A stretch of DNA of 64,000 bases, from positions 1 to 64,000 of the IMG/VR virus record IMGVR_UViG_3300010998_000026; one strand, given 5' to 3'. This DNA is from a virus (lineage: Duplodnaviria > Caudoviricetes). The position numbers and the translations under genes were made by a program. This document shows, piece after piece, positions 5,221 to 64,000 of the stretch. Position 1 is the stretch's first letter. The number at the start of each line of letters is the position of its first letter. A model generated the notes under the pieces. That model was not told where the DNA came from, searched no databases, and saw nothing but the letters and a program-made list of their open reading frames with translations.

Positions 5221-5238
5221 AATCCACATCCTTTTTAT

Positions 5239-5723: not shown

Positions 5724-5737
5724 AAAAGGAGAGTAAA

Positions 5738-6043: not shown

Positions 6044-6266
6044 AGATAATTTAATTTATTGTAGTAATTGTAATATTACTACTGAACGCATTACGCCATA
6101 TTGCCCTTGGTGCGGCAAAAAGATGGAAAATTTTGATACTAGGTATTGTGATTGTTATCATATAGAATATGGTATACCACGTTGTTGGGGCACAAAAGAA
6201 AAAGATATTTGTAGTTGTAATGGCTTTAAGAGAAATTGTAATTTTTATAAAGGAGAAAAGAAATGA
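6027..6266 (+). CDS. Zinc-ribbon hypothetical protein
   Basis: CSNC...YCPWCG. Confidence 0.7.
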   Translation: MRWVYKDNLIYCSNCNITTERITPYCPWCGKKMENFDTRYCDCYHIEYGIPRCWGTKEKDICSCNGFKRNCNFYKGEKK

Positions 6267-6646: not shown

Positions 6647-6659
6647 AGGAGAGCAAAAA

Positions 6660-7097
6660 ATGAATATTAATATTTCTCAGAAAGATTGTCAGTTTTATGT
6701 CGATGAAGAAAAGCGTAAGGTAATTTGTGTAATTCCCCACACGACAGAACTATTCCTAAGATATATTGATGAGTTTAATCTTATTATAATTAAAGCAGGG
6801 GATAAATTCTGGTCGGAACTTCTAATGCCTCATCGTTTTGTTGGTATTGCTACTTGCAGCGAAAATGATACTTTTGATCCTGAATTTGGTATGCAGCTTG
6901 CGTATCATAAGGCAAAGAGAAAGCTAAATACTAGTTTCTTTAAGCGTGCGCAAAAGTATGTTGATAGAATTGACAACGAATATACAAATATTGTTAATAG
7001 TTTTAATGATTTCGTCGAGCGCCTAGCTACTAATGATGAAGAGCGCGAAAAAAATATTGAGGAATATCTCAATAAGGAGACTGAAAATAACGAATGA
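6660..7097 (+). CDS. Hypothetical phage protein
   Basis: GIATCSENDTFDPEFGMQLA motif of a common phage family; RBS AAGGAG. Confidence 0.75.
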   Translation: MNINISQKDCQFYVDEEKRKVICVIPHTTELFLRYIDEFNLIIIKAGDKFWSELLMPHRFVGIATCSENDTFDPEFGMQLAYHKAKRKLNTSFFKRAQKYVDRIDNEYTNIVNSFNDFVERLATNDEEREKNIEEYLNKETENNE

Positions 7098-7261
7098 TTA
7101 CAGTTGGTGAATTAATTGATATGCTAAGTGAATACTCTGATGATTATCCAGTAATGATTGGGTATACACGCTTAAAGAATGTATATCTTGATGATAGTTT
7201 TTATTTTGGGGATTCTAAAAATCCCGCCCAAGCTATCGGCCCGGCAGTTATTTTAGAATAA
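7094..7261 (+). CDS. Small hypothetical protein (55 aa)
   Basis: MITVGELIDMLSEYSDDYPV...; ATGA overlap; TAA stop before the terminator. Confidence 0.7.
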   Translation: MITVGELIDMLSEYSDDYPVMIGYTRLKNVYLDDSFYFGDSKNPAQAIGPAVILE

Positions 7262-8781: not shown

Positions 8782-8972
8782 AGTACCACCTCCTTACTTT
8801 TTAGTAGTAAAACAATGACTAATATTTTGTAAAAAGTTTTGGTGTAAAAGTAAAAAAGAATGTTTTTGTTTTAGAGTTAATACTACTTTTATAGAGAAAT
8901 AACTCTCTTCACGAGAGTATTTTGAAAAGGTATTTATACGGCATAATGCCGAGGAAAAGGAGGGAAAAAGGA

Positions 8973-50986: not shown

Positions 50987-51015
50987 TTGACTTTTTTTAA
51001 AATTTTTGATATAAT
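50987..51015 (+). promoter_or_regulatory. sigmaA-type promoter
   Basis: TTGACT-17-TATAAT. Confidence 0.8.
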
Positions 51016-51099
51016 ATATATGTAAGAGGGGAAATAGTTCCCTTCTTACATATTAAATATGTGGGATAGGAACCACATTATATAAGGAGAGGAACTTAT

Positions 51100-51441
51100 A
51101 TGAAATTTTATAGTGAAAAACTAAATCGTCTTTTTGACAGTGCAGAAGATTGCCAGAGTGCAGAATTTAAGGCTAAGGAACAAGAAAATCTTGATAAGAT
51201 CCGCAAGGAGCGCGAAGCCGCAGAAGCAAAGGCGAAGAAAGAAAAGGAAGCCGCAGAACGCAAGGCTATGGCGGCGGAAGTAGATGAAGCGCGCAAGGCT
51301 ATGGTCGCCGCTCAGAAGTCTTATCGTGAAGCAATTGAAAAGTTTGTAAAGAAGTATGGTACATATCATTATTCTACAAATAATTTTGAAGATGTGCCAA
51401 CTCTCTTTGATGTTTTTGATTGGCTTCCAAAACTTCTATAA
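51100..51441 (+). CDS. Coiled-coil hypothetical protein
   Basis: RBS; ORF track; no TAG. Confidence 0.8.
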   Translation: MKFYSEKLNRLFDSAEDCQSAEFKAKEQENLDKIRKEREAAEAKAKKEKEAAERKAMAAEVDEARKAMVAAQKSYREAIEKFVKKYGTYHYSTNNFEDVPTLFDVFDWLPKLL

Positions 51442-51468
51442 AATTAAGGGTTGAGTAATCAACCCCAT

Positions 51469-51543
51469 GCGGGCGTAGTTCAACGGACAGAACATAGTCC
51501 TTCTAAGTCTACAATCTCAGTTCGATTCTGGGCGCCTGTACCA
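51469..51543 (+). tRNA. tRNA-Arg(TCT)
   Basis: Cloverleaf; loop CTTCTAA; TTCGATT; CCA. Confidence 0.9.
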
Positions 51544-51903
51544 AAGTTCCTATTACGCCTCTTTACAATGCGCACCCAATAGGACATTTTATTAAAGGTT
51601 TCTTTTATTCTCGCCTTTCCATGGATAAGTAGAATAAACGTCGGGGCTAATTATGGTCTGCGTGAATGACCGCCATGAGTTCATAGCCATGTAAGTTAAT
51701 CCGGAGTAATACTATGACGTAGGGCAACTTTTACGATAATGGAAGTTGTTAGTGGAGAATACCAGCTATCAATGGCTCGGTTTATCTTCGATATAGATAT
51801 GACTTTGTAATTTCAAGAGGAAATTGCTATCCATACTAAATTACGGTTATACATTTTAAGACCCAATCTTAAATTTAATACTAAAATTTAGTATGGATAT
51901 TAT

Positions 51904-51932
51904 TTGACTTTTCTTTAAAATTCTGATATAAT
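51904..51932 (+). promoter_or_regulatory. sigmaA-type promoter
   Basis: TTGACT-17-TATAAT. Confidence 0.8.
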
Positions 51933-51958
51933 AGATATGTAAGGAGGAAGGAAAGAGT

Positions 51959-52075
51959 ATGTATGAACTTGATGATTTTCTCTGTGAACCGAATTGTGAG
52001 GAACTTGAAGAAGAATTTGAAGCTTGGCTTGAGCTTCAAAATCAAGTAGAAGTTAAATATTTGACTTCTTTCTAA
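51959..52075 (+). CDS. Small acidic protein (38 aa)
   Basis: Promoter and purine-rich RBS upstream; MYELDDFLCEPNCEELEEEFEAWL... Confidence 0.55.
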   Translation: MYELDDFLCEPNCEELEEEFEAWLELQNQVEVKYLTSF

Positions 52076-52089
52076 AATTATGATATAAT
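52061..52089 (+). promoter_or_regulatory. sigmaA-type promoter for the RNA cluster
   Basis: TTGACT-17-TATAAT. Confidence 0.8.
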
Positions 52090-52102
52090 AGATATATGAG
52101 AT

Positions 52103-52174
52103 GGGGAGTTAGTTTAGGGGCTAGAATTGCTGCTTTGCACGCAGCGGACACGAGTTCGATTCTCGTACTTTCCA
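52103..52174 (+). tRNA. tRNA-Ala(TGC)
   Basis: GCTGC-TTTGCAC-GCAGC; G3.U70. Confidence 0.9.
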
Positions 52175-52178
52175 TTTA

Positions 52179-52290
52179 AAGGCACATACAGCAAAATCAA
52201 AGATAATCTTTGAATCGCGAGTTCAAATCTCGTCTCGCCCCATTGGGCAAGTAGCATAGTATGGTAATGCAAAAGAATTTTATGTGCCTT
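52179..52290 (+). ncRNA. CAGCAA-scaffold RNA 1 with circularly permuted tRNA body
   Basis: Outer stem AAGGCACATA/TATGTGCCTT; T arm, then acceptor 3' strand, then acceptor 5' strand, then D arm. Confidence 0.75.
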
Positions 52291-52346
52291 GACTTTTTTT
52301 AAAATTATGCTGTAAGTATCGTAAAGAGAAAATATTTTCTCTTTAT

Positions 52347-52422
52347 CGCAGATAGGGCAAACGGTTAAGCCGCGGCGCTCATAACGCTTGAGGAAATGGT
52401 CCAACTCCATTATCTGCGACCA
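52347..52422 (+). tRNA. tRNA-Met/Ile2(CAT)
   Basis: Loop CTCATAA; acceptor CGCAGAT/ATCTGCG; ACCA. Confidence 0.85.
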
Positions 52423-53330
52423 ACGGTTGATACCAGACCGTTAGAAGGTATCCGTTCAAGATGAGAAACATCGACGTAGTGATGTTAGGGCGAAAAGGTA
52501 GAGGCACAATGATGTCAGAAAACCCTGATGCACTTAGAGTCTAGCCCCGCTCAAAGGTGGCAACTGGAGAGCGTATGGTTCCAAAACACCAATAAGTGCG
52601 GCGTAAGCTACCGATGGTACAGGTGCGGTAAGTAAAACCTGTTAAAACCTTATTCACAGGTCGTCAATCATCGTTAGATTGGGATGGCAACCTGATAGCC
52701 AAAGTAATTACTAGTTATCGAAAAAGTGGAAATGAATCGTTTTCACAACTAGTTGTATGGATGTAATGCGAGATTCTCATTACATAACGCTATGGACATG
52801 GCTCCGCCAGGGATGACGGGAAGCGCATAGTATGGTGCCCAAATGCTCAATGTATTAGCTTTTGAAAAGCAAAGCTGGCTTGCAAGCAGCTATACAAGCA
52901 AAGTGAAGAATGGGCTAAATGGAGTTTGAAGAACAGCCAATTAAATCTAGGAGAGACCTAGTATAAATAAGTGAGTCCATTCTGTGAAATGGTTATAAAA
53001 GGCAACGACAGGACGTTAGATTTTCCAAACTAAGCCTTTCAAAAAATGGGATGGGAAAATTAGTGACCTTACACTTAAAAAGGATGCCGAAAAACGGGAT
53101 GGAAGGAAAGTAATGGGTGAAGTCCTTACTGATTGTCGATAAATCAGAAAAGCGGTGGAAGGGCCCTCCGCACCCGTCACAATGTGTAGGTAAATGCGAC
53201 CCGACGGATATGGGGTATGGGTGAAAGCTAACCCATAATTACGATTGCTTGATCAACAGTTGAACGCAGTATGAGTGGATGAATTTCCCTCCCCAGTAGA
53301 GTGACTTCGCGTCTGGGTTATCAAAACGCG
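52422..53330 (+). ncRNA. ~900-nt large structured ncRNA (GOLLD-like candidate)
   Basis: No credible ORF; 5' and 3' hairpin loops complementary (TGATACCAG vs CTGG..TATCA); CGTTCAA/TTGAACG long-range pair; lies between tRNA genes. Confidence 0.55.
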
Positions 53331-53337
53331 CAGTTAT

Positions 53338-53397
53338 GCTCTGATAGTGTAATGGAAAGCACGCCCGGAAGGATTGGTTCGATTCCAATGAAGAGCA
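53338..53397 (+). ncRNA. tRNA-like RNA lacking an anticodon arm
   Basis: Acceptor GCTCT/AGAGC, D arm, T arm ATTGG-TTCGATT-CCAAT, only about 10 nt between the D and T arms. Confidence 0.65.
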
Positions 53398-53548
53398 AAC
53401 AGTTGACACGTATCTGTGTAAAAATGTGAGAAGCAAAGTCGATGAAAAACAAAGATTAAAAGTTTAAAAAAAGTTTGTTATTATTATTGGCGTAATAATA
53501 ACTAGTCGGCGGCGTTTCGCTATTCCGGTGCGCCAACACTGGAATTAT

Positions 53549-53621
53549 GCCCGCATCGAATAATTGGTTAGTTCGTCACCCTTTCAAGGTGAAAATTCCG
53601 GATCGTTCCCGGATGTGGGTA
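53549..53621 (+). tRNA. tRNA-Glu(TTC)
   Basis: TCACC-CTTTCAA-GGTGA; atypical T loop. Confidence 0.85.
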
Positions 53622-53627
53622 TTATAG

Positions 53628-53703
53628 GGTGCATTAGTTTAATTGGTTAAATCCCCAGTCTGTCACACTGGAAACACGAGTTCAAATCTCGTATGCACCG
53701 CCA
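53628..53703 (+). tRNA. tRNA-Asp(GTC)
   Basis: CCAGT-CTGTCAC-ACTGG; GCCA. Confidence 0.9.
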
Positions 53704-53973
53704 TTTGCATCACCTCCTTAATGATGCAACTCTTAACACGAATTTAGCACTTAAACTACCATCGGCACGTCCAAATATCGAAGCAAGTTTCTGAGCAGCC
53801 CTCTTCGAGGCACGTGATATGTGGCTTAGCGGAAAAGAGTATAAATGAAGCGAAGTAAAGTGCAGTGCGCGGCTACACACTATAACAATATGGTGCCTGT
53901 AATGGAGTCAAATGCACCCCTTATAAGGGAGACAACCATAATAGCCCATGCCGAGGGTGTGCTCGGCTTTTAT

Positions 53974-54080
53974 GTGGCAACCAGTAAGCGACCAAAGTAA
54001 TGCTTACGCGGGAGAGTTGTTAGATGTTTTTGCCGACGGGCCGTCTAACACTGTAAGTTCAAATCTTACTTGCTACACCA
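53974..54080 (+). ncRNA. Non-canonical tRNA-like RNA (G3.U70, A73, CCA; enlarged D and anticodon arms)
   Basis: Acceptor GTGGCAA/TTGCTAC-ACCA; T arm GTAAG-TTCAAAT-CTTAC. Confidence 0.65.
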
Positions 54081-54088
54081 TAGCCCAT

Positions 54089-54216
54089 AAGACGGGTCAG
54101 CAATTTTTTTCTTTGAAAATAATTCTGTAAAATTAAGGCGAGGGTTCGATTCCCTCCGTGGTCGGGTGGGCTCCGGCCGCGTGGTGTAGTTGGTCGCATT
54201 AAAAAAGACCGTCTAG
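54089..54216 (+). ncRNA. CAGCAA-scaffold RNA 2 with circularly permuted tRNA body
   Basis: Outer stem AGACGG/CCGTCT; GTA-containing loop hairpin, T arm, closed acceptor, D arm. Confidence 0.75.
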
Positions 54217-54241
54217 TTTATTTTTTTTATATGGTGATAAT

Positions 54242-55186
54242 ATGGCAGAAAACAAATATACCGCAACTGATTTAAAAGAAATGTAGGCATGGCCGCTAGA
54301 AAGAAAAATTCAAGTTTCTTAGACAAGGATTCTTGAATTTGGTGACCATTTTAATGGAAAGATTTTTGTTGCTTTTAGCGGTGGAAAAGATAGTACAGTT
54401 TTACTTGATTTAGTAAGACGTGTATTTCCCGATACTCCTGCTGTTTTTATTGACACAGGCTTAGAATATCCAGAACTAAAAGAATTTGTAAAATCACACG
54501 AAAATACAGAAGTTATTAGACCTAAGAAAACGTTTAGACAAGTAATTGAAGAATTTGGCTATCCAATTGTAAGTAAAAAAATTGCTGGCTATGTTGCTAC
54601 TGCAAAACGAAATCCTAATTCCGCACGCGCAAAATTTTTGAGCGGTGAATATGATAGTAAAATATTTGGTTTTGGTGATGGTAAATGGAATTTCTTAGTT
54701 CAAGCACCATTTAAAATTAGTGATTATTGTTGTGATGTAATGAAAAAACAACCAAATCATCACTATTCAAAAGAAACTGGTCGTTTTCCAATTCTTGGAA
54801 CATTAGCATCTGAATCTATTGCTCGTCGTAATGAATGGATGCGTAGCGGTTGTAATTTATTTGATAGCGATAAACCTACATGTAAGCCATTATCTTTCTG
54901 GACTGATAATGATATTTTAGAATATTTAGTAAAATATAATATTCCATATTGTCCTTTATATGGTGATATTATAAAAGATAAAAAAGGTAATTGGACTACA
55001 ACAGGTATTAAAAGAACTGGTTGTATTTTTTGTGGTTTTGGTGCACATTGTGAAAAATGTCCAAATCGTTTTCAACAATTAAAGGTATCACATCCAAAAA
55101 TTTGGGAATATTGTATGCGTCCTTGGGAAGAAGGCGGCCTAGGATTAAAAGAAGTATTAGATTATATTAATGTCCCTTATGAATAA
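54242..55186 (+). CDS. Phosphoadenosine phosphosulfate (PAPS) reductase family protein (code 15)
   Basis: VAFSGGKDSTVL PP-loop, DTGLEYPE, CCDVMKK, RTGCIFC; 2 N-terminal TAG. Confidence 0.85.
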
Positions 55187-55197
55187 GTGGTGATATA

Positions 55198-56880
55198 ATG
55201 AGAGCAGCAGTTTATTGTGGTACGAGAAATTTATATAAAAATATGGTAATTGCGGCGAAATCATTACTTATTCATTCTAATGTAGAAAAAATTTATTTTC
55301 TTATTGAAGATGATATTTTTCCTTATGAAGTACCATAGGGAATAGAATGTATAAATATAAGTAATTAGAATTATTTTAGAAAGAATGGCCCAAATTATAA
55401 AAGTTCTTGGACTTATATGGCACTAATAAAAGCAGCCTTTACTAAAATTTTTCCATAGTTAGATACAATTTTATCATTAGATGTTGATACAATTATAAAT
55501 GAGAATATATCTAATTTATGGGATATAGATATATCTAATTATTATGTCGCGGCAGTTCCTGAACCAGATAAAACATATGATGACTTTACTTATATTAATG
55601 TTGGCGTTGCTTTATTTAATTTAAAAAAAATGAGAGAAGATAAAAAAGATGATGAAATTATTTATCTTCTTAATTCAATAAAATTAGGTTATCCAGAGCA
55701 AGATGCAATTAATATTTTATGTCAAAATTATATTTATAATTTGCCAGCAGATTATAATATAAATAATTATACATAGAAAGCCTCACATAGAAAAATTATT
55801 CATTATGCTGCAATAAAAAAATGGCAAGACTTGCCGCTTATTTCTTATTATGAAAAAATGGAATTAGTAAGAAATAAAGAAGATAATTTTAATTTAGATA
55901 TTATAATTCCGACTTATAATAATGAATAGGGATTAATTACTACTTTAAAGAGTATTCCAAATCGAGAAGAAATTACAATTAATATTATTGATGATGCTTC
56001 TCCAATTTCTTATAAGAAGAAAATATTTTCATTATTTCCATATGTAAATTGGATAACATTAAAGAAAAATTCTGGCCCTGGTGTTGCTCGTGAAATAGGT
56101 ATAAAAAATACTAGTAATCCATATCTTATGTTTATTGATACTGGTGATTATTTATATTCAAATGAAGTTCTTGATAGAATATTAAATGATATAAAAAATA
56201 ATACAATGCCAGATATATATTTATATCAATGGTATAATGAAGAAAATAAACAATTTAGTACAGATTGGAATCCATTAATGCACGGGCATATTTATAAGCG
56301 AGAATTTTTAGAATTATATGATATTGATTTTTGTAAAGAATCTTCTTACTCTAATGAAGATATAGGTTTTAATCATACTTGTGATATGATTTTAAATCAT
56401 ATTGAGATGTATGATACTACAGAACATAAAGTATTTTATGAATATCCAATTTATTTCTATACTTATGATGCTAATTCTATTACTCATGCAGGTGGAAAAG
56501 AATATTATTATACAAAACAAATTGCTGGATTAGCGGCTAATGCTAAACATGTAATAGATAATGCAGAAAAAAATAATATAAATATATATGTATTATTAAA
56601 TGAATTAAATGTATTATTTGTTGGATTATATGAAAGTTTTCTATTATGCGCGAAAAAACGGCCTGATTTATTATATGATAATTGGTATTATATTAGGCAA
56701 TTTTATTTTGAAGTATATTAGAAATATGAAAGTAAAAGTGAAGATGCGTTAGGTATTGCTATTAGTTAGAAAATGAAGCATCTATTACGAGCAGGGATAA
56801 GAAATATAAATGTAAAACGCTTTATTTCTAATTTAAAACAATTTGAAAATTTACCAGATTATTATTTGACATAGATATAA
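55198..56880 (+). CDS. Fused GT8 + GT2 glycosyltransferase (~560 aa, code 15)
   Basis: GT8: LSLDVDTI, YINVGV, PEQDAIN, IIHYA; GT2: IIIPTYN, IIDDAS, NSGPGVAR, FIDTGD; single frame through TAG. Confidence 0.85.
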
Positions 56881-56894
56881 ATTTATGTTATAAT
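56866..56894 (+). promoter_or_regulatory. sigmaA-type promoter
   Basis: TTGACA-17-TATAAT. Confidence 0.8.
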
Positions 56895-56976
56895 AAATAT
56901 GTAAGAAAGAGAAAAGGTCGCTCTTCTTACTACCAATCATAAATTAACTCCGTCATCATACCTTCGGGTATGATAT

Positions 56977-57047
56977 GGCCGATTCGCCAAGTGGTATGGC
57001 AGGTGGCTGTTAACCACCCCAGGGGAGTTCAATTCTCTCATCGGCCG
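56977..57047 (+). tRNA. tRNA-Asn(GTT)
   Basis: GGTGG-CTGTTAA-CCACC. Confidence 0.9.
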
Positions 57048-57127
57048 CTCTCACCTGAGCAAAAGTGGTGACTAAACCGATGTGCGGCTAGCAACCTACT
57101 GCTATTTTATTATGTGAGGTATATAAT

Positions 57128-57667
57128 ATGAGTGATGTACGTTTAAAGATTTTACCCCCTTGGACTATTGTAATTCGTAAACTTGAAGCTCTATTTGATG
57201 GTGACCCTCAGATTGCTTTCAATTGTGATTTTTCTGGTAGTCATCCTACTGTAATACTTGCTTGCAATAATGGCGATAAGGTTGCGGCTTTACTACAGAT
57301 TCTTCCAGAAGAAGTTAATTTTGGTAATATTTCTCTAAAGGTTATTATTGATGGCACACCTAGTAATCGCGCTTTTACAAGTAAGGTTGAACTATTTGAT
57401 ACAGCTTTTAGCGGCAATCCTGCTTATGCTTATTCTGTATGTCCTGCAGAAGAAGGTTATATGTGGATTGGTACAACTTATGTAGTATTTAATAATTGCG
57501 TGGTACAATTTGCCGCAGATAATCTGAATGATTGCCACGGTATTATTAGTACCCTATACGAAACTATTGCTAATGAACTTCTTACTGGCCCAGCAACAGC
57601 AGGTGTATTTTATAATACTAATGTTGAACGTGCTGGTCTTGGTATGCCATTAGGAGAGTGGCCCTAA
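57128..57667 (+). CDS. Hypothetical phage protein
   Basis: RBS GAGG; 179 aa, no TAG. Confidence 0.8.
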   Translation: MSDVRLKILPPWTIVIRKLEALFDGDPQIAFNCDFSGSHPTVILACNNGDKVAALLQILPEEVNFGNISLKVIIDGTPSNRAFTSKVELFDTAFSGNPAYAYSVCPAEEGYMWIGTTYVVFNNCVVQFAADNLNDCHGIISTLYETIANELLTGPATAGVFYNTNVERAGLGMPLGEWP

Positions 57668-57689
57668 TTAACGCGGCGAAAGCCGCTAT

Positions 57690-57764
57690 CGAGCATTAGC
57701 ACAGTTGGTTTAGTGCGCGCGCCTGATAAGCGCGAGATGCTTCGTTCGAATCGAAGATGCTCGA
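57690..57764 (+). tRNA. tRNA-Ile(GAT)
   Basis: CGCGC-CTGATAA-GCGCG. Confidence 0.9.
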
Positions 57765-57859
57765 CTACCTTTATTAAAGATACTCTAGCTTATTGAGTTA
57801 AGTAGGTAAACTACTTTCTCGTTATAACGGAAACTAAAATAAAAAAAGGAAGAATAACT

Positions 57860-58096
57860 ATGACTGAGACTCAAATAAAAGAAAAAAGGAAGAATGGAAG
57901 AGATGCGCCACAAGACAGAGTCCCACGTGACGAATTACTATATCCCACGAAGGAGACATCATTCGATCCTCCTGTTCGCTCTATACTTGATCGTGTGCCT
58001 AATTCGAGTAAGCCAGTAAAGTATAAGTGCCTAGACCCTGATTATGTTAAATACAAGCGTAGTATTATAACTGGAACTCAAATAAAAGAAGAATAA
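57860..58096 (+). CDS. Possible small basic protein with repeated T.TQIKE motif
   Basis: ORF track; weak RBS; could be non-coding. Confidence 0.35.
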   Translation: MTETQIKEKRKNGRDAPQDRVPRDELLYPTKETSFDPPVRSILDRVPNSSKPVKYKCLDPDYVKYKRSIITGTQIKEE

Positions 58097-58166
58097 TGCT
58101 CTCTTCTCTTTCTACCCTCGTAAGAGATCACTTTTATATCTAAACCTATTGGGTTAAGTAGGCAAT

Positions 58167-58240
58167 GCGGCATTAGTGTAGTGGTAACACCTTTGCCCTC
58201 CAAGCAAATTTCGCCCGTTCAAATCGGGTATGCCGCTCCA
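58167..58240 (+). tRNA. tRNA-Gly(TCC)
   Basis: TTTGC-CCTCCAA-GCAAA; TCCA. Confidence 0.9.
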
Positions 58241-58245
58241 AGCCG

Positions 58246-58321
58246 AGATACGTCAGCAATTTTTCTTCTCAAGCGGTATTTTGAAGCACCGGGTCGGCTC
58301 CGGGAAGATAAGCGTATCTAG
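58246..58321 (+). ncRNA. CAGCAA-scaffold RNA 3
   Basis: Outer stem AGATACG/CGTATCT-AG; shares the GGGT.GGCTCCGG segment with RNA 2. Confidence 0.7.
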
Positions 58322-58400
58322 TTTTAATAGACTTGCCCACGCCTCTTAACAATGCGTACCAGGGGAGCACGTGGCTACGACGGTTAATAGTAGCATTCAT

Positions 58401-58534
58401 GCTGGTGTGGTGGAATGGCAGACACCTCAGACACTCGGTGTCCAGTGACTTTCGCTGGGGCAGCACCAGTGCCGAGTACCATTAAAATCTGATGCTCTTT
58501 GAGCGTGCCGGTTCGAGTCCGGCCACCAGCACCA
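58401..58534 (+). tRNA. tRNA-Leu(TAA) interrupted by a 49-nt insert (58433-58481) in the anticodon loop
   Basis: TCAGA-C[insert]TTAAAA-TCTGA; otherwise canonical type II Leu tRNA with ACCA. Confidence 0.85.
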
Positions 58535-58541
58535 TTTTTGA

Positions 58542-58964
58542 AAATAGGTACTTTCGTAACGAATCAAGGATATGGTAAGAGTGCTGTTTGATGAGCTGTA
58601 CCAAAAGACTTGGGCGTCAAAAGGCAGAAGTTAAATGGTATTGAAAACCAGCCTATTGTTGGCTTGGGTAAGAGGACCCTGTAAGTAGTTGATAGTGGAA
58701 CAATAACCTATGTAAAATAATTAGTGCTACGAAGCCAATCAGCTAAGTCCTTGTGGAGATGTACGCTGAAACAAGAGCAATCAAAAATTCCGAGGAAAAA
58801 TCCTAAGACAGTGTTGAGATTGCTCACGCGGGAAAAGCAGCAGTAGTAAATGGAGTTAGATGAACAGCTAATTATTGTGTAAATAGGTGCAGAATGATGA
58901 ATCTGAGGTAAGGTGAAATCCCTATGCCCGCAATGTTAAATGGAATTTGACGAACAGCCTATTT
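58542..58964 (+). ncRNA. ~420-nt structured ncRNA of unknown family
   Basis: Ends pair (AAATAGGT..TTCGTAA / TTGACGAA..GCCTATTT); no ORF; between two tRNA genes. Confidence 0.5.
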
Positions 58965-58970
58965 ACGTAT

Positions 58971-59050
58971 GGCCCGCTGGCGAAATTGGTTTACGCAGCG
59001 CACTCAAAATGCGTGCCTTCGGGTTCTCAGTTCAAATCTGAGGCGGGCTA
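58971..59050 (+). tRNA. tRNA-Leu(CAA)
   Basis: GCGCA-CTCAAAA-TGCGT; variable arm with TTCG loop. Confidence 0.9.
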
Positions 59051-59054
59051 CTAT

Positions 59055-59127
59055 GTCCAATTGGCGCAACGGCAGACGCGCATGGCTAAGGACCATGTTT
59101 TTGAAGGTTCAAATCCTTTATTGGACA
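59055..59127 (+). tRNA. tRNA-Leu(AAG), A34 anticodon, short variable loop
   Basis: CATGG-CTAAGGA-CCATG; acceptor GTCCAAT/ATTGGAC-A. Confidence 0.8.
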
Positions 59128-59131
59128 TTAT

Positions 59132-59160
59132 TTGACTTTTCTCAAAATCTATGATATAAT
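59132..59160 (+). promoter_or_regulatory. sigmaA-type promoter
   Basis: TTGACT-17-TATAAT. Confidence 0.8.
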
Positions 59161-59191
59161 AAATATATAAAAGGAAGAAAGAGGTAAAAGT

Positions 59192-59506
59192 ATGTCCTGC
59201 GTCTGTGAAAAAAATACTCCTCGTAATGGCCCATATTATCCATTAGGTATTAAAAAACGTATTAAATATGATAAAATTGTAAATTATCATTATGAAGGTC
59301 ATGATGGGCATGGTGGCTATACTTGTGATTATATTCCAGTTGAAACAGAAGCAGAAGTTTATCTAAGAGTAGATTATCCAATACTATATGAAACAAATGG
59401 TGGCGGATATAATAAAAGATTATTTCATTGTCCACTATGTGGACGTTATTTTCCGCCAGTAAGTCAATGGGAAAAAGAACAGGAAAAATATGAATTAAAT
59501 ACTTGA
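59192..59506 (+). CDS. Zinc-ribbon hypothetical protein
   Basis: CVC...HCPLCGR; RBS GAGG. Confidence 0.75.
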   Translation: MSCVCEKNTPRNGPYYPLGIKKRIKYDKIVNYHYEGHDGHGGYTCDYIPVETEAEVYLRVDYPILYETNGGGYNKRLFHCPLCGRYFPPVSQWEKEQEKYELNT

Positions 59507-59531
59507 CTTTCTTCCAAATTTATGTTATAAT
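59503..59531 (+). promoter_or_regulatory. sigmaA-type promoter directly upstream of the large ncRNA
   Basis: TTGACT-17-TATAAT. Confidence 0.8.
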
Positions 59532-59556
59532 AAATATGTAAGAAAGGGAAACAAAG

Positions 59557-60144
59557 AACTCTCTGTTTAGCAATTACGAACCAAGTGAAGATGTGTTAGC
59601 CACACAGCTTGGGCTACCTGGATAACATCGCAGACCTTGATGGGATACTTTCAAGTATGCGACGCGAAACTAGTAATAGTTAGCGATAAGGGAGAAACTC
59701 CAAATGTTAAGGGTAGGCGCCGATTACTTCGCTTGTAAATGCACGATTCCTCACGGCGGCACAATAGAAAGCTAGGTTAAGAGCCAGGCCGAATCCAGAT
59801 AAGGTGTTGGGGTGGTAGCCAATACAACCTCTGGAAATAACCACAAGTCGCTACTGTCGGTGAAAGTCAGAAATGGCATATAAGTGAGGTTTACGGTTGG
59901 AGTAGCTCAAGACAGCAAATGAATATGTTATTAAAAAGAAGCGTTTTAATTCTTTTCATATTGCTGAATGGCTTGGGTGAAACTTGAAGGTAGACAATCC
60001 TTCCTATTCTCGGCGCGAAAGCGCGGCTATTAGATGGTATGAGGTCGCTACTCATGCTACAGCCTAATGGTCAATAGTAGCATAATATACAAGAAGAAGA
60101 TAATTGGTATGGCGAAGGTCACGCTAATTGTTAAACAGAGAGTT
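59557..60144 (+). ncRNA. ~590-nt large ornate ncRNA, probably ROOL
   Basis: 20-bp terminal stem AACTCTCTGTTTAGCAATTA/TAATTGTTAAACAGAGAGTT; internal GAGTAGC/GCTACTC pair; size and phage tRNA-array context match ROOL. Confidence 0.65.
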
Positions 60145-60167
60145 TTCTATACAGAAAGGAGTATTAA

Positions 60168-60506
60168 ATGAATTATATTATTAATCCAATGTGGTTCTAC
60201 TGGCTAAATGTTTGTGATGGTTTTAAAATATTTTTAATTGTATTTTCAGTGCTATATGGTATTAGTATTATAGTTACATTAATTGAATTCGTAGTAGAAA
60301 ATAATAAATTCCCAAAATGGAAAATTATTTTTTACATAATTCCTATAATTTTAATTTTATTAGCAATTTTTATTCCTAATAAAACTACGTTAATTGAGAT
60401 GCAGGTTGCAGAATTAGCTACTAAATCTAATATTGATTATACTATTGAATCAATTAGAGAAATTATTAATTATTTGTTAGAAACAATTAATAATTTTAAT
60501 AGTTGA
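60168..60506 (+). CDS. Membrane protein (2 TM)
   Basis: Hydrophobic segments; RBS AAAGGAG. Confidence 0.75.
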   Translation: MNYIINPMWFYWLNVCDGFKIFLIVFSVLYGISIIVTLIEFVVENNKFPKWKIIFYIIPIILILLAIFIPNKTTLIEMQVAELATKSNIDYTIESIREIINYLLETINNFNS

Positions 60507-60531
60507 CATTGTATAAAATTTATAGTATAAT
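60503..60531 (+). promoter_or_regulatory. sigmaA-type promoter
   Basis: TTGACA-17-TATAAT. Confidence 0.75.
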
Positions 60532-60615
60532 AATATTGCGAGGAGCAGGCGGAAGTACGAAAAGAAGGCCGCAATAATTGTTAAACAAAGTGTCTTTTAT
60601 ATTGAAAGGAGCAAT

Positions 60616-60945
60616 ATGAAAATTTACATTTACGTAGATGATATTCGTGATGATGATACTTATTATAATATGAATCTTTATCCCGAGTGGCGTCTAATCA
60701 TCTGTCGCGATTATAATCAGACTGTACAAGTTCTCACTCAACATCTTACAGATGAAATTTTCATTGACCTTGACCATGATCTTGGTTTTGATGATGATAA
60801 TTATGAATATTCTGGTTATGATATTTGTAAGTTTATTATTCAACACCGAATTCCACTTGCCGGTTTTCACATCCATAGTATGAATCCTGTTGGTGTACAG
60901 AATATGCGGCAACTACTTACCCATTATGGATATAAGGAATATTAA
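60616..60945 (+). CDS. Cyclic-phosphate-processing receiver-domain protein
   Basis: IYVDDIR, IDLDHDLG, SGYDICKFI and HIHSMNPVG motifs. Confidence 0.75.
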   Translation: MKIYIYVDDIRDDDTYYNMNLYPEWRLIICRDYNQTVQVLTQHLTDEIFIDLDHDLGFDDDNYEYSGYDICKFIIQHRIPLAGFHIHSMNPVGVQNMRQLLTHYGYKEY

Positions 60946-60948
60946 TAT

Positions 60949-60977
60949 TTGACTTCTTTCTAAAATTATGTTATAAT
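60949..60977 (+). promoter_or_regulatory. sigmaA-type promoter upstream of the Arg-Sup-Gly tRNA unit
   Basis: TTGACT-17-TATAAT. Confidence 0.8.
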
Positions 60978-61117
60978 AATTATGTTAAGAGCGTGGGACA
61001 TATAGCGGCGACTCTTAACATTAGCTAAACGTGAAGGGAACAAGTTACCTTAGAAGACTTGCACGTCAGTGGACCTGTAACGGGAGGAGAAGGTCGTAAA
61101 TATTCTCCCTCCACTAT

Positions 61118-61193
61118 CTCTCGTTCGTCTAATGGACTAGGACAATAGACTACGGATCTATTAATGAGGGTTCAAATCCTTCACGGGAGACCA
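61118..61193 (+). tRNA. tRNA-Arg(ACG)
   Basis: ATAGA-CTACGGA-TCTAT; ACCA. Confidence 0.9.
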
Positions 61194-61195
61194 TT

Positions 61196-61272
61196 ACGAC
61201 GATTACAGCAAATTTTTATAATAATATAAGCAATAATCTTTTAAATTATGTAGCTAATTTTAAATCGTCGTG
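61196..61272 (+). ncRNA. CAGCAA-scaffold RNA 4 (Lys-UUU-like anticodon stem-loop)
   Basis: Outer stem ACGACGATT/AATCGTCGT; internal ATAAT-CTTTTAA-ATTAT. Confidence 0.7.
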
Positions 61273-61283
61273 TTATTTATTAT

Positions 61284-61378
61284 AGCCCCTTAGCTCAATT
61301 GGTAGAGCACCGGTCTCTAAAACCGTGATATGCCTCTGAAGCAGGTTGTTCTGGGTTCGACTCCCAGAGGGGTTGCCA
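61284..61378 (+). tRNA. Amber suppressor tRNA (anticodon CTA) with a 19-nt extra arm
   Basis: CCGGT-CTCTAAA-ACCG; acceptor AGCCCCT/AGGGGTT-GCCA; T arm CTGGG-TTCGACT-CCCAG. Confidence 0.9.
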
Positions 61379-61383
61379 TAGTT

Positions 61384-61461
61384 TAGACCATTACAGCAAT
61401 TATTTAATGAATTAAAGAAAATATTTTTGCTACAAATCCTTTCTCAAATTAAATGGTCTAG
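61384..61461 (+). ncRNA. CAGCAA-scaffold RNA 5 (Ser-GCU-like anticodon stem-loop)
   Basis: Outer stem TAGACCATT/AATGGTCTA; internal ATTT-TTGCTAC-AAAT. Confidence 0.7.
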
Positions 61462-61467
61462 TTTTAT

Positions 61468-61538
61468 GCGGCTATAGTGTAGCGGTAACATTGATGCTTG
61501 CCATGCATCCATCACCAGTTCGAGCCTGGTTAGCCGCT
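61468..61538 (+). tRNA. tRNA-Gly(GCC)
   Basis: GATGC-TTGCCAT-GCATC. Confidence 0.9.
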
Positions 61539-61547
61539 TTAAAATTG

Positions 61548-61577
61548 AATAACTAGGAATAATTTCCTAGTTATTTT
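61548..61577 (+). terminator. Probable intrinsic terminator
   Basis: AATAACTAGGAA-TAAT-TTCCTAGTTATT plus T. Confidence 0.65.
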
Positions 61578-61594
61578 GTTTCTAAGGAGATTTT

Positions 61595-61837
61595 ATGCGA
61601 AAAGGTAGGCAAATTGATCATAATTGGGATATACGAAGATATAAAGGTGATTGTGCCTTTTATGCCTATTGTAAATGTGGATTTTATTATCCTTGTCATA
61701 AAATATCTCATAGTACAGATATTTTTAAAACAGAAATTGACTTAAATAAAATATATCATTATTGTCCCAATTGCGGCGCACATAAAAAATGGTATAATGA
61801 TATTCCAAGAAAAATTAATAAATTTCAATGGGAATAA
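61595..61837 (+). CDS. Zinc-ribbon hypothetical protein
   Basis: CKCG...YCPNCG; RBS AAGGAG. Confidence 0.75.
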   Translation: MRKGRQIDHNWDIRRYKGDCAFYAYCKCGFYYPCHKISHSTDIFKTEIDLNKIYHYCPNCGAHKKWYNDIPRKINKFQWE

Positions 61838-61841
61838 TTAA

Positions 61842-61870
61842 TTGACATTATATTAAAATTATGTTATAAT
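61842..61870 (+). promoter_or_regulatory. sigmaA-type promoter
   Basis: TTGACA-17-TATAAT. Confidence 0.8.
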
Positions 61871-61895
61871 AAATATGTTGAAAGGGGAGAAAAAG

Positions 61896-62069
61896 ATGAC
61901 TAAGGTTGGAGATAAAGTTAGAATTATCTTTATGTCTGGTGAACCACAGTATACTGGAAAAGAAGGAATTGTTAAATATATTGATGATGCGGGACTAATT
62001 CATGGAACTTGGGGCGGTTGTGCTATTGTCCCAGGTGAAGATGAATGGGAAATTATTAATGGGAAGTGA
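61896..62069 (+). CDS. DUF4314-like small protein
   Basis: VGDKVRIIFM..EPQ..G.EG.V..IDDAG.IH..W...AIVPGED. Confidence 0.7.
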   Translation: MTKVGDKVRIIFMSGEPQYTGKEGIVKYIDDAGLIHGTWGGCAIVPGEDEWEIINGK

Positions 62070-62219
62070 TTGACGCATCAGGGTAGCGTCCGCTGTGGCA
62101 ATCGTCACCGGCCTCGGGCAAACAGAGGTCTATGCGTAAGGGTCATATGAGCATTTTAATTGCACGCACCGAAGGTGGTCCGCACATCACCTGGGGTTCA
62201 AATCCCCCACTTTCCACCA
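62061..62219 (+). ncRNA. 159-nt tRNA-like RNA (G3.U70, A73, CCA) with a ~100-nt internal domain
   Basis: GGGAAGTG/CACTTTCC-ACCA; GACGC/GCGTC D-like arm; GGGG-TTCAAAT-CCCC T arm. Confidence 0.65.
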
Positions 62220-62289
62220 AGGCACGCTGGTTCTGCCTATAAGACCAGTCATCGGGTACAGGTCGATGTAAAATATAATTTGTACGTTA

Positions 62290-62364
62290 GCGGGTATAGC
62301 CAAGCGGTATGGCATCACACTTTTAATGTGAGCACGTTGGGTCCGACTCCCAATACCCGCACCA
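62290..62364 (+). tRNA. tRNA-Lys(TTT)
   Basis: TCACA-CTTTTAA-TGTGA; ACCA. Confidence 0.9.
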
Positions 62365-62367
62365 TAT

Positions 62368-62442
62368 ACCTCACTAGCATAATGGTAGTGCATTTGATTC
62401 TTAATCAAAGTTGTCAGGGTTCAAGTCCCTGGTGAGGTACCA
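62368..62442 (+). tRNA. tRNA-Lys(CTT)
   Basis: TTTGA-TTCTTAA-TCAAA; ACCA. Confidence 0.9.
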
Positions 62443-62539
62443 GTGGCGGCGGCGCCCGTCAGCAGTGTCTGATCAACACAAAACCGACCCATGTGCGTTC
62501 CGCAACTTCACATGTAAAGCTAAAAAAGTTGCGACGCGT

Positions 62540-62615
62540 GCCTTCGTAGCTCAATTGGTAGAGCACTTCTATGGTAAAGAAGAGGTAGTCAGTTCAAATC
62601 TGACCGTAGGCTCCA
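62540..62615 (+). tRNA. tRNA-Thr(GGT)
   Basis: CTTCT-ATGGTAA-AGAAG; TCCA. Confidence 0.9.
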
Positions 62616-62619
62616 ATAT

Positions 62620-62692
62620 GCACGCATAGCTCAGTTGGGAGAGCACCACGTTTACACCGTGGGTGTCGGCGGTTCGAGTCCGTCTGTGTGCA
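62620..62692 (+). tRNA. tRNA-Val(TAC)
   Basis: CCACG-TTTACAC-CGTGG. Confidence 0.9.
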
Positions 62693-62837
62693 TTATTAAA
62701 TATATGACCAACACGCGAACAACCTGTTCTATTTAAAATGCCAGTCTACTTGTTGCCGAAAGTAGTGCGGGAGCGGCAACTCCCAAAAGGTGAAGCGCGG
62801 CCACCATAAGAGTACGCCGGACACCTCGCCCGTTGAG

Positions 62838-62977
62838 GAGGGAAATGTAGAGTAGAAACCCACCATTCTCTACTACCAGAACATAAGGGCATATGGAATG
62901 GTAAATTGTGGGATTTATGGGAATGTGGTGTATGGGCATTGCTTCTTGGTTGAGGTTCGATTCCTCACTTTCCCTCA
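62838..62977 (+). ncRNA. 140-nt tRNA-like RNA with replaced anticodon domain
   Basis: GAGGGAAA/TTTCCCTC-A acceptor; TGAGG-TTCGATT-CCTCA T arm; GTAGAG/CTCTAC arm. Confidence 0.55.
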
Positions 62978-62978
62978 T

Positions 62979-63049
62979 AGGAGTTTAGGATAATAGTAGT
63001 CTACTTGTCTCCAAAACAAGTGGTGGGTGTTCAAATCACTCAACTCCTG
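62979..63049 (+). tRNA. tRNA-Trp(CCA)
   Basis: CTTGT-CTCCAAA-ACAAG. Confidence 0.85.
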
Positions 63050-63056
63050 CTTATAT

Positions 63057-63128
63057 GTGGTCGGTAGTTTAACGGTAAAACCTCGGATTGTGGCTCCGAA
63101 GACGCAGGTTCAACTCCTGTCCTTCCAA
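63057..63128 (+). tRNA. tRNA-His(GTG), acceptor stem with mismatches
   Basis: TCGGA-TTGTGGC-TCCGA; G-1. Confidence 0.8.
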
Positions 63129-63138
63129 TTTTATTTAC

Positions 63139-63214
63139 GCCGAGGTAGCTCAGCAGGAAGAGCAGGAGACTGAAAATCTCCGTGCCGGTGGTTCAATTCC
63201 GCCCCTCGGCACCA
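63139..63214 (+). tRNA. tRNA-Phe(GAA)
   Basis: GGAGA-CTGAAAA-TCTCC; ACCA. Confidence 0.9.
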
Positions 63215-63218
63215 ATAC

Positions 63219-63290
63219 GCGCCGAATACTCGTCGGCCGGGTGAAGCACTGCAAATGCTTTGTTAGTAGGTTCAACTCCTACTCGGCGCT
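63219..63290 (+). tRNA. tRNA-Cys(GCA)
   Basis: AAGCA-CTGCAAA-TGCTT; U73. Confidence 0.85.
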
Positions 63291-63308
63291 TAATAAGGAG
63301 GAATTATT

Positions 63309-63566
63309 ATGTATAATGTGGATAGAATCAATGAATGGAAAGAAAAAATTACTAATCATTTCTTTTATCAATTTTTACAAAATCTAAAAACCGTTGACGA
63401 ACCAAAAATTGGCTCATCCGCGTGGGAAGATGTATTTGAAGCAACTTGTAAACAGGAAGGCGAAGAAGAATTATATAATGAATATCGTGATTTTCCCCCT
63501 GTAGATAAAAATGCTATTTATGAATTTTTACAAATTAAAACAATTGACTTTCGGAGAAAATTGTGA
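63309..63566 (+). CDS. Hypothetical protein
   Basis: RBS AAGGAGG; ORF track. Confidence 0.75.
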   Translation: MYNVDRINEWKEKITNHFFYQFLQNLKTVDEPKIGSSAWEDVFEATCKQEGEEELYNEYRDFPPVDKNAIYEFLQIKTIDFRRKL

Positions 63567-63572
63567 TATAAT
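63544..63572 (+). promoter_or_regulatory. sigmaA-type promoter
   Basis: TTGACT-17-TATAAT. Confidence 0.75.
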
Positions 63573-63595
63573 ATAAATATAAAGAATAGATACTT

Positions 63596-63669
63596 ACAGG
63601 ATGTGGTGTAATGGTAACATGTCGCATTTGGGATGCGAAGTAGCGGTTCGAATCCGACATCTTGTACCA
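63596..63669 (+). tRNA. tRNA-Pro(TGG)
   Basis: TCGCA-TTTGGGA-TGCGA; ACCA; short T stem. Confidence 0.85.
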
Positions 63670-63752
63670 TGGGGAACGGAAAGGTAGCTCCTTATACGGG
63701 ATTTAAGAGTGCCTCTATCACTCAGCCATAATTTTCAATAGAGGTGAAAATT

Positions 63753-64000
63753 ATGCCTAAAAAATGGACGCAAGAAACTTTTGAACAAAAAATAAAAGAA
63801 TATAGCAATGATACTGTAATAGTAATTGGGCAATATATAAATAGAAAAACACCGGTTGAAATAGAATGTAAAACTTGTCACTATCAATGGTCTTATTCTC
63901 CTTTATCATTAATGCCTTCTTCTTAGAAAAAATATCATTTTAAAGGATGCCCTAATTGTAAATATATAGAAACTACTTGTTAGGAATGTGGTAAAACATT
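63753..64000 (+). CDS. Zinc-ribbon protein, probable homing-endonuclease N-terminus (partial, code 15)
   Basis: KWTQETFEQKI...YINRKTPVEIECKTC...GCPNC...C(Q)ECGK; runs off the window through TAGs; RBS GAGGTG. Confidence 0.55.

Follow-up and report, generated by a model that had tools for sequence, protein, structure and literature searches.

Here we analyzed two short elements, designated S4 and S5, that lie between transfer RNA (tRNA) genes of a Caudoviricetes phage (IMG/VR record IMGVR_UViG_3300010998_000026). The stretch examined, hereafter the window, was the first 64 kb (64,000 nucleotides (nt)) of its 76,141-bp contig. Both elements are very probably Y-RNA-like RNAs that carry a variant docking motif and fall outside the Rfam family YrlA as defined. 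The overall explanation that we favor, tentatively and with slightly less than even confidence, is that they belong to a Y-RNA-like family docked on a phage Ro60-like protein, from which an anticodon arm would be offered to anticodon-reading proteins. A decoy or bait role of the displayed arm is a narrower proposal, plausible but on balance doubtful. Sequence comparison among relatives points clearly to a family with a common motif, to its linkage with tRNAs and a Ro60-like gene, to a consensus among anticodon-like loops, and to covariation of the arm stems. An earlier reading of this DNA, made from the letters alone (the sequence-only reading), had proposed isolated anticodon stem-loops on scaffolds as nuclease decoys; it did not recognize the scaffolds as Y-RNA-like RNAs and probable partners of a phage Ro60 homolog. 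They were read as Y-RNA-like because of the family signature, the Ro60-like neighbor, and permuted tRNA-like domains as in YrlA. The two elements and their hairpins are as follows.

61195..61272, + strand: S4, a probable Y-RNA-like scaffold of 78 nt with a 10-bp terminal stem and the motif
61233..61249, + strand: putative anticodon-arm mimic of S4, a 5-bp stem of ATAAT (61233-61237) and ATTAT (61245-61249) with the loop CTTTTAA (61238-61244)
61383..61461, + strand: S5, a probable Y-RNA-like scaffold of 79 nt with a 10-bp terminal stem and the motif
61423..61437, + strand: weak anticodon-like hairpin of S5, ATTT (61423-61426), TTGCTAC (61427-61433), and AAAT (61434-61437)

As shown, S4 is composed of a 5′ arm (61195-61204), a single A (61205), CAGCAA (61206-61211), a cargo (61212-61262), and a 3′ arm (61263-61272). 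S5 has the same layout, with a 5′ arm (61383-61392), A (61393), CAGCAA (61394-61399), cargo (61400-61451), and 3′ arm (61452-61461). Both cargos are AU-rich and about 50 nt long, and the elements are separated from the flanking tRNAs by 1-11 nt. Neither S4 nor S5 was called as a tRNA by ARAGORN or the Rfam tRNA model, there being no cloverleaf with an acceptor stem, and a tRNA-like domain (T arm, acceptor-like hairpin, and D arm) was absent from both. In the Rfam scan, S4 and S5 were covered by no family, and YrlA gave no match at E ≤ 10. Known ribozymes were rejected on the same ground of having no Rfam match, RNase III sites were rejected because the stems are too short, and terminators were rejected as the identity of the scaffolds.

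Next, relatives were fetched through the Ro60-like protein and the cRec (cyclic-phosphate processing receiver) protein, which yielded 91 loci (1.74 Mb; L-numbers below are locus labels). The signature was defined as CAGCAA behind a stem of at least 8 bp. It matched 226 times, with 108 matches adjoining tRNAs, and 60 of the 91 loci carried at least one. MAFFT did not register the inner 3′ arm, the cargo varying in length, and a permutation control was used in place of a covariance model. In this control, CAGCAA gave 103 tRNA-adjacent matches compared to a mean of 5.7 for the 59 other hexamer permutations, of which the sole high value (89) belonged to the overlapping ACAGCA. From the relatives, 133 elements in 82 clusters were collected, nearly all next to tRNAs. 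The consensus of 65 non-redundant elements comprises a 9-bp stem with the base WAGAC/GUCUW, an A, CAGCAA, a U-rich stretch, and an A-rich run before the 3′ arm. Terminal stems ranged from 8 to 13 bp, and ACAGCAA was present in 64 of the 65 elements, the remaining one having CGGCAA. The arm sequences of positional orthologs differed yet still paired, as in three elements between tRNA-Gln and tRNA-Thr. Orthologs of S4 with the same arms also followed tRNA-Arg(ACG) at L010:1890-1953 and L011:10609-10668, and elements at the position of S5 followed the suppressor tRNA at L004:2569, L010:2358, and L190:910.

The family was also observed in cultured phages, namely Bacillus subtilis PJN02, Listeria LMSP-25, Enterococcus Ben, and the Felix-O1-like Escherichia coli phage wV8, where the elements sit in a tRNA array adjoining a Ro-like gene. 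In PJN02, whose Ro-like gene is at L209:12007-13467, candidate elements are located at L209:9490-9556 (Lys arm), 9797-9923, 10588-10644, and 11111-11231, and another starts at L209:11866 adjacent to that gene. As a control, the T5 tRNA region (25 tRNAs in 30 kb without a Ro-like gene) contained no tRNA-adjacent signature element. A 14-mer scan of viral contigs gave mostly chance matches, an element being found only in the relative L130.

In the phage genome itself, the stem-plus-CAGCAA search found seven copies, to which the atypical S2 is added; all but the copy within the ROOL RNA follow a tRNA. Besides S4 and S5, these copies are as follows.

52179..52290, + strand: S1, a permuted tRNA-like member with a 10-bp stem and CAGCAA
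58246..58319, + strand: S3, after tRNA-Gly(UCC), with an 8-bp stem and CAGCAA
59905..59978, + strand: signature copy in a variable hairpin of ROOL, with a 7-bp stem, A, and CAGCAA
67358-67428, + strand: S6, a stem and CAGCAA, beyond the window
67539-67653, + strand: S7, a stem and CAGCAA enclosing a whole tRNA-like domain, beyond the window

S1 has the permuted order of hairpin, T arm, acceptor-like hairpin, and D arm. It aligned with Rfam YrlA over the full model at 37.2 bits (gathering score 69, E 3e-5), and its minimum free energy (MFE) z-score was −4.0. In the ROOL copy, CAGCAA can pair with a downstream UUGCUG, and the Rfam ROOL consensus is weakly similar there. Ahead of the atypical scaffold 2, at ~54010-54081, lie a T arm and an acceptor end of tRNA-like character (repeat D3), called by neither ARAGORN nor Rfam.

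The cargo was then compared across the 82 clusters. It was permuted tRNA-like in 21 clusters, 6 of them with an anticodon-like hairpin; 19 clusters had a T arm close to the 3′ end (either the arm plus a T arm or a whole tRNA-like domain), 14 of these with the hairpin; and 42 had no T arm, 20 of these with the hairpin. The scaffold-borne tRNA-like domains at L196:6395-6496, L197:6987-7089, and L198:6971-7072 are 95% identical and carry the anticodons GAA, AAA, and AUA, and because of these anticodon differences ARAGORN names them Phe, Phe, and Tyr.

The probable protein partner is encoded past the tRNA region. There, the contig carries genes for a Pnkp/PSTK-like kinase, a metallophosphoesterase, a 500-amino-acid protein with DUF2828 and DUF7788 (69427-70929 of the genome), HNH endonucleases, and a DRB0094-type RNA ligase that is truncated by the contig end. 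An AlphaFold model of the DUF2828+DUF7788 protein, built from 32 homologs, had a predicted local distance difference test score (pLDDT) of 78.5. When this model was used in Foldseek, all 12 matches listed at E ≤ 0.001 were Ro60/TROVE proteins (the total at this threshold was 13, the unlisted one being a chain of an already listed entry). The top match was Ro60 of the Thermus phage phiLo (E 2e-8), and vWA/MIDAS domains came next. Judged from the predicted structure, therefore, the protein is a Ro60 homolog with a HEAT-repeat ring plus a vWA fold. Its Pfam label is DUF2828+DUF7788 and not TROVE, and a sequence search of the PDB gave no match. Full-length relatives were present in 703 cultured-phage records, and the mycobacteriophage homologs carry the annotation ‘Ro-like RNA binding protein’. 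DUF2828 apparently occurs in eukaryotes too, as judged from plant papers.

The scaffolds share the + strand with this gene, S6 and S7 being 1.8-2.1 kb and S4 and S5 ~8 kb upstream of the gene start at 69427. Among 82 Ro60-like loci, 60 had a scaffold upstream on the same strand, within 300 nt in 10 of them, and scaffolds were upstream of the gene in 112 cases versus 1 downstream. In the available text of Iyer et al. 2021 (PMC7824862), TROVE proteins, RNA ligases, and cRec are placed in phage RNA repair, and cRec is linked to RNA ligases in phages. The gene context of Ro60-like protein, Pnkp-like kinase, phosphoesterase, RNA ligase, and cRec fits with tRNA damage.

We then analyzed the hairpins within the cargo. 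The hairpin sequences quoted for S4 and S5 in the sequence-only reading were all present, and the S4 loop CTTTTAA proved identical to the loop of the phage tRNA-Lys(UUU) (62320-62326), as it had stated. S4 thus combines the features of an anticodon-arm copy, namely a 5-bp stem, a 7-nt loop, U33, R37, and a tRNA-identical loop. The S5 hairpin, which had been described as Ser GCU-like, is there too, but its loop differs from that of the phage tRNA-Ser(GCU) at two positions and its stem is weak. Of scaffolds 2 and 3, for which weaker GUA- and UUG-containing loops had been reported, scaffold 2 has its GUA hairpin at 54120-54135, and S3 had no clean anticodon-like hairpin.

The same reading had made its proposal depend on an anticodon-loop consensus among homologs (7-nt loops of the form YU-NNN-R), and this consensus was found. 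The set comprised 26 non-redundant short members without a T arm, clusters being split at 50% shared 8-mers; their cargo was 79% A+T. A hairpin of at least 4 bp with a 7-nt YU-NNN-R-N loop occurred in 14 of the 26 versus 2.23 ± 1.39 in 2000 dinucleotide shuffles, in a test that counts related elements as independent and in which some members are still related. The shuffle maximum was 8, and none of the 2000 reached 14. With a stem of at least 5 bp, the same loop occurred in 12 of 26 (0.85 expected), and the exact Lys loop CTTTTAA in 5 of 26 (0.01 expected). Among loop sizes, only size 7 was enriched (17 versus 6.6), sizes 9 and 11 rising as opened forms of the same hairpins.

Pair counts gave a corresponding picture. 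For 16 distinct arms chosen by their loop sequence alone, 86% of positions paired compared to 52% in shuffled sequences (0/500), although four arms pair poorly; once the partner was slid, pairing fell to 27-48%. Covariation was 0.82 versus 0.25, and two-sided changes were observed at all five stem pairs. The Lys loop itself was carried on the stems AUAAU/AUUAU (S4), AUUGA/UCAAU, AUAGA/UCUAU, UAUC/GAUA, and ACAAU/AUUGU, the last from the cultured B. subtilis phage PJN02 (L209:9490-9556); loci with stems unlike that of S4 were L156, L181, L190, and L209. Three S4 orthologs share arms, motif, and hairpin position. Their helix, judged by pair counts on the named structure in place of RNAalifold, was paired in all three and included one compensatory pair. 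The loops read CUUUUAA, UUAGGGA, and CUCUAAA, so that the triplet was replaced (UUU, AGG, and CUA) while U33 and A38 were fixed, position 32 remained a pyrimidine, and position 37 a purine.

Per-site differences were also calculated for 57 related pairs of elements. They amounted to 0.275 for the triplet (34-36), 0.127 for the other loop positions, 0.181 for the arm stem, 0.159 for other cargo, and 0.093 for the scaffold stem plus motif. Because these pairs are non-independent, a faster change of positions 34-36 than of the rest of the loop is taken as suggestive only. Among the displayed loops, Lys UUU led with 5 clusters (a number that rises if near-variants are counted), the other frequent ones being Phe GAA, Cys GCA, Asn GUU, and AGG. 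The support for the hairpins is comparative, since thermodynamics fails to separate S4 and S5 from shuffles; thermodynamics was accordingly dropped as evidence, single-sequence folds of S4, S5, and S3 being no better than shuffled ones.

S4 and S5 appear to belong to one small operon (60949-61576) that is composed of a strong putative promoter, a leader, three tRNAs interleaved with the two elements, and a terminator-like hairpin. The cRec gene lies 250 nt upstream of the S4 operon. These neighbors are as follows.

60616..60945, + strand: gene for cRec (Pfam PF20274, E 1.3e-17)
60949..60977, + strand: putative sigma-70-type promoter, TTGACT, 17 nt, and TATAAT with an upstream TG, 11 of 12 matches, by pattern match alone
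61118..61193, + strand: tRNA-Arg(ACG) (ARAGORN; Rfam tRNA 53.5 bits), CCA encoded, one base before S4
61284..61378, + strand: suppressor tRNA with the anticodon CUA, between S4 and S5 (ARAGORN; Rfam tRNA 55.4 bits)
61468..61538, + strand: tRNA-Gly(GCC), the final operon gene (ARAGORN; Rfam)
61547..61576, + strand: terminator-like hairpin with a 13-pair stem (inverted repeat I25), followed by a T run

The promoter is one among 10 copies of the promoter block of repeat family D1, and the leader between it and tRNA-Arg is richer in GC. The suppressor tRNA has an insert of ~21 nt in its variable region; it shares an identical D arm with the phage tRNA-Thr(GGU) (repeat D4).

From these observations, we infer how the transcript would be processed, that the Ro60-like protein would bind it, and what partner the arm may have. 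S4 and S5 would be co-transcribed with tRNA-Arg, the amber-suppressor tRNA, and tRNA-Gly from the one predicted promoter and presumably set free as the flanking tRNAs are trimmed by their processing enzymes. The 9-10 bp stem with its WAGAC...GUCUW base and the unpaired ACAGCAA, which may be a variant of the GNCGAA bulge in known Y RNAs, would dock the phage Ro60-like protein, a role assigned from analogy and linkage. The variable part appears to be tRNA-derived; in some members it is an entire tRNA-like domain, in others a permuted one, and in the smallest an anticodon arm by itself. In S4, the anticodon arm of tRNA-Lys(UUU) would be copied with a 5-bp stem and a 7-nt loop, and S5 would be a degraded version. 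The Ro60-bound RNA may then offer this arm to anticodon-reading proteins, with host anticodon nucleases as the leading candidates and the arm serving as decoy, bait, or tether, while the kinase, phosphoesterase, ligase, and cRec would restore cut RNAs alongside. A bolder form of this proposal, which we regard as rather unlikely in full, is that phage Ro60-Y RNA particles are programmable anticodon-arm displays. They would intercept host anticodon nucleases, for example Lys(UUU)-specific ones, the triplet being swapped rapidly among related phages as the nucleases met change and the repair enzymes mending the cuts.

Several observations weigh against the Ro60-docked anticodon-arm display, besides the relatedness within the test set and the departures from YrlA described below. 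The S5 stem consists of four A-U pairs, and its MFE structure instead pairs UUGCU with the conserved AGCAA. The S5 3′ end aligns with T-arm remains in its L010 counterpart, so S5 may be decaying. The scaffold 2 GUA hairpin (54120-54135) has a 6-nt loop and not one of 7. No anticodon-like hairpin was found in 12 of the 26 short members or in 22 of the 42 T-arm-less members. Neither S4 (z −1.3) nor S5 (z −1.2) folds better by MFE than shuffled sequences. The S4 arm was predicted neither by its single-sequence MFE structure nor by RNAalifold on the three orthologs, which shifted the inner helix and left a loop of 9 nt. The triplets on display are of many kinds (28 in 40 clusters), which fits poorly with a few specific nuclease targets. 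If the cargo is a decayed tRNA, anticodon-like loops are expected by descent, and their presence alone is no proof of function. An unmodified arm is possibly a poor nuclease substrate. Three animal-gut metatranscriptome runs gave small shares and contigs from relatives that are uninformative on strand and ends; the relatives' RNA-library contigs match over tRNA-Arg to 61211 and diverge inside the S4 cargo.

The main rival is a generic Y RNA that would act as has been proposed for other Y RNAs, by gating Ro60 or tethering an exoribonuclease (PNPase, for example), the arm being a vestigial tRNA-like remnant without an anticodon role. The cargo reduction series, from whole tRNA-like through permuted, arm plus T arm, and arm only to nothing recognisable, would be expected of such a remnant, and so would the hairpin-less half of the short members and the diverse triplets. 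In addition, phiRo60 and Yrl RNAs of phage phiLo assemble with host PNPase (available text of PMC12135203). However, at least five lineages keep the exact Lys loop on compensatorily different stems, the frame of the loop (U33, R37, and size 7) persists while the triplet changes, and size 7 alone is enriched, whereas an unconstrained remnant should decay evenly. We consider a generic Y RNA somewhat unlikely.

An orientation toward translation or tRNA metabolism was also considered, in which the anticodon-arm mimic would face a synthetase, a modifying enzyme, a T-box leader, or the decoding site and tune decoding. The elements lie within tRNA operons, the phage recodes TAG, one S4 ortholog shows the suppressor loop CUCUAAA, and tRNA-modifying enzymes as well as RNase P act on YrlA RNAs (PMC4201824, in its available part). 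Nevertheless, no neighborhood gene suggests such a role, the neighbors being RNA-repair enzymes, and a lone arm is without the acceptor end required for T-box or ribosomal delivery; this makes the idea improbable. Even less probable is that the elements are debris or punctuation, that is, decayed tRNA genes or spacers whose stems aid RNase P/RNase Z trimming or transcript stability. This would suit the close spacing to tRNAs, the AU-rich weakly folding cargo, and the degraded look of S5, but not the conservation of the 7-nt motif and stem base from rumen phages to Bacillus, Listeria, Enterococcus, and E. coli phages, the compensatory stem variation, or the T5 array, whose 25 tRNAs lack any tRNA-adjacent element. 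Chance hairpins in AU-rich sequence, against which the sequence-only reading had itself cautioned and to which the z-scores, the A-U stem of S5, and the cargo composition lend some color, are very improbable, being refuted for the family and for S4 by the shuffle controls, the pair counts, and the recurrence of the same loop in cultured phages, although S5 taken alone may be due to chance. The idea that the scaffold is a splicing-like junction, at which the phage ligase would join permuted tRNA genes, was rejected as a general account, as arm-only members have no tRNA body; for the permuted members it may hold.

Coding in the phage genome was examined as well. When TAG was read as sense (TAG=Q, a working code only), the long open frames summed to 87.9 kb as compared to 52.5 kb, and the longest frame reached 2815 codons as compared to 574. 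On this coding evidence, the phage is a recoding phage that reads TAG as sense. The structural and late genes (window 7300-50300) are densely interspersed with in-frame TAG, the 2782-codon frame at 8922-17270, for example, having 29, and there is none in the early genes (1-7100) or in the small genes of the tRNA region (51000-64000). This distribution is consistent with a suppressor-tRNA-driven switch into late expression. ARAGORN made 28 tRNA calls in the phage genome, one being the tRNA-like domain within S7; a tRNA at 52347-52419 (Rfam 43.5 bits) was missed by it.

Further features of the tRNA region were noted. Ten near-consensus promoter blocks (TTGACT, 17 nt, TATAAT, and an upstream TG) stand before units of tRNAs, RNAs, and short open reading frames (ORFs) between 50980 and 63598. 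Rfam placed a ROOL RNA at 59557-60141. Two copies of a 53-nt repeat with 77% identity (60114-60166 and 60564-60616) end in the ribosome-binding-site-like GAAAGGAG before two small ORFs, and the first copy doubles as the ROOL 3′ end, pairing with the ROOL 5′ end (I19). GC-richer blocks lie among the tRNAs at 52420-53440, 53705-54060, 58320-58970, 62695-62978, 51545-51800, and 62070-62290; neither a long ORF nor an Rfam match at E ≤ 5 was present in them, and they may be further large structured RNAs besides ROOL. Sub-threshold matches to the abiF RNA motif (gathering score 37) occurred at 51549-51584 (31.7 bits) and 58336-58365 (27.7), each directly after a tRNA. In a related phage, L011:2733-2787 gave a sub-threshold match to an HDV-like ribozyme (37.8 bits; gathering 44) directly after tRNA-Ala.

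That Y RNAs occur near phage Ro60 genes is already known. In the accessible portions of the literature, no published description was found of the ACAGCAA variant, its multi-copy spread in tRNA arrays, the lone-arm reduction, or the recurring Lys arm, nor of any anticodon-nuclease decoy RNA, although some tRNA-like members may appear in the supplement to Chen et al. 2014. The family bears on the largely open question of what Ro60 and Y RNAs do for bacteria and phages and on tRNA imitation by Y RNAs, which it pares down to a bare anticodon arm next to a complete RNA heal-and-seal gene set. The idea that Y RNAs present tRNA parts to enzymes attacking or mending tRNAs is hereby made testable, a cultured B. 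subtilis phage being available. The signature (the WAGAC stem base plus ACAGCAA) also detects RNAs in cultured phages that current family models miss. If true, the programmable display would assign a concrete task to phage Ro60/Y RNAs and extend the known anti-defense strategies by a class of RNA mimics.

Finally, the family was compared with known systems. Among the closest is YrlA (Rfam RF02553). According to the available text of Chen et al. 2014 (PMC4201824), these Y RNAs contain tRNA-like domains, lie within 4 kb of Ro60 on the same strand, and were found in 254 bacteria as well as 22 phages. Both families have 5′ and 3′ ends joined by a terminal stem, a conserved unpaired motif beside that stem, larger members with a tRNA-like domain (T arm, acceptor-like hairpin, and D arm), a same-strand location near a Ro60 ortholog, and occurrence in phages. 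They differ in the motif, which is ACAGCAA here and GNCGAAN0-1G (CGAA bulge) there, the canonical motif being absent; in the best Rfam score, 37 against a threshold of 69; and in copy number, with seven copies by signature plus the atypical S2 in one genome, interleaved with tRNAs. Furthermore, Rfam YrlA over three related loci found one element only (L015, 31 bits), an extra anticodon-like arm is frequent here, and many members are cut down to the arm alone.

In the Thermus phage phiLo, phiRo60 binds two upstream Y-like RNAs, Yrl1 and Yrl2 (PDB 9KOP and 9L5Y), and these RNAs are proposed to recruit host PNPase (PMC12135203). The phiRo60 structure is the best fold match to the present Ro60-like protein; however, Yrl1 and Yrl2 have the CGAA bulge, and no anticodon arm is described for them in the available text. 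A likeness was also observed with the Dictyostelium Class I RNAs (Rfam RF01414), which are reported only from dictyostelids and bind an RRM protein (PMC7919456, in its available part). These have a short, compensatorily varying terminal stem, a motif beside the 5′ arm, and a variable remainder, and their consensus has UUACAGCAA in common with S5 (61389-61429). S5 scored 15.4 bits (E 3 in 281 nt), far short of the gathering score of 41.5, and there was no match at E ≤ 5 in 13 kb; the likeness may be a coincidence or reflect a shared protein-binding logic.

With respect to anticodon nucleases, retron Ec78 PtuAB targets tRNA-Tyr. PrrC is a tRNA-Lys nuclease (PMC1484252, available part). The record of phage T5 (NC_005859; L213, 28-42 kb) annotates, within its tRNA region, eight stable RNAs whose function is unknown, which resemble the present elements in being small and interleaved with tRNA genes, some being annotated ‘tRNA-like’ and several having complementary ends. 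None is in the ACAGCAA scaffold, however, and there is no Ro-like gene in the 30 kb examined; they may be another solution to the same task. According to the available text of PMC12409363, the T5 tRNAs for Lys, Thr, and Asn counter PARIS AriB, whose targets Lys(UUU) and Asn(GUU) are among the arms commonest in the present family. The T5 molecules are complete functional tRNAs, in contrast to the elements described here, which are unchargeable and would work by mimicry.

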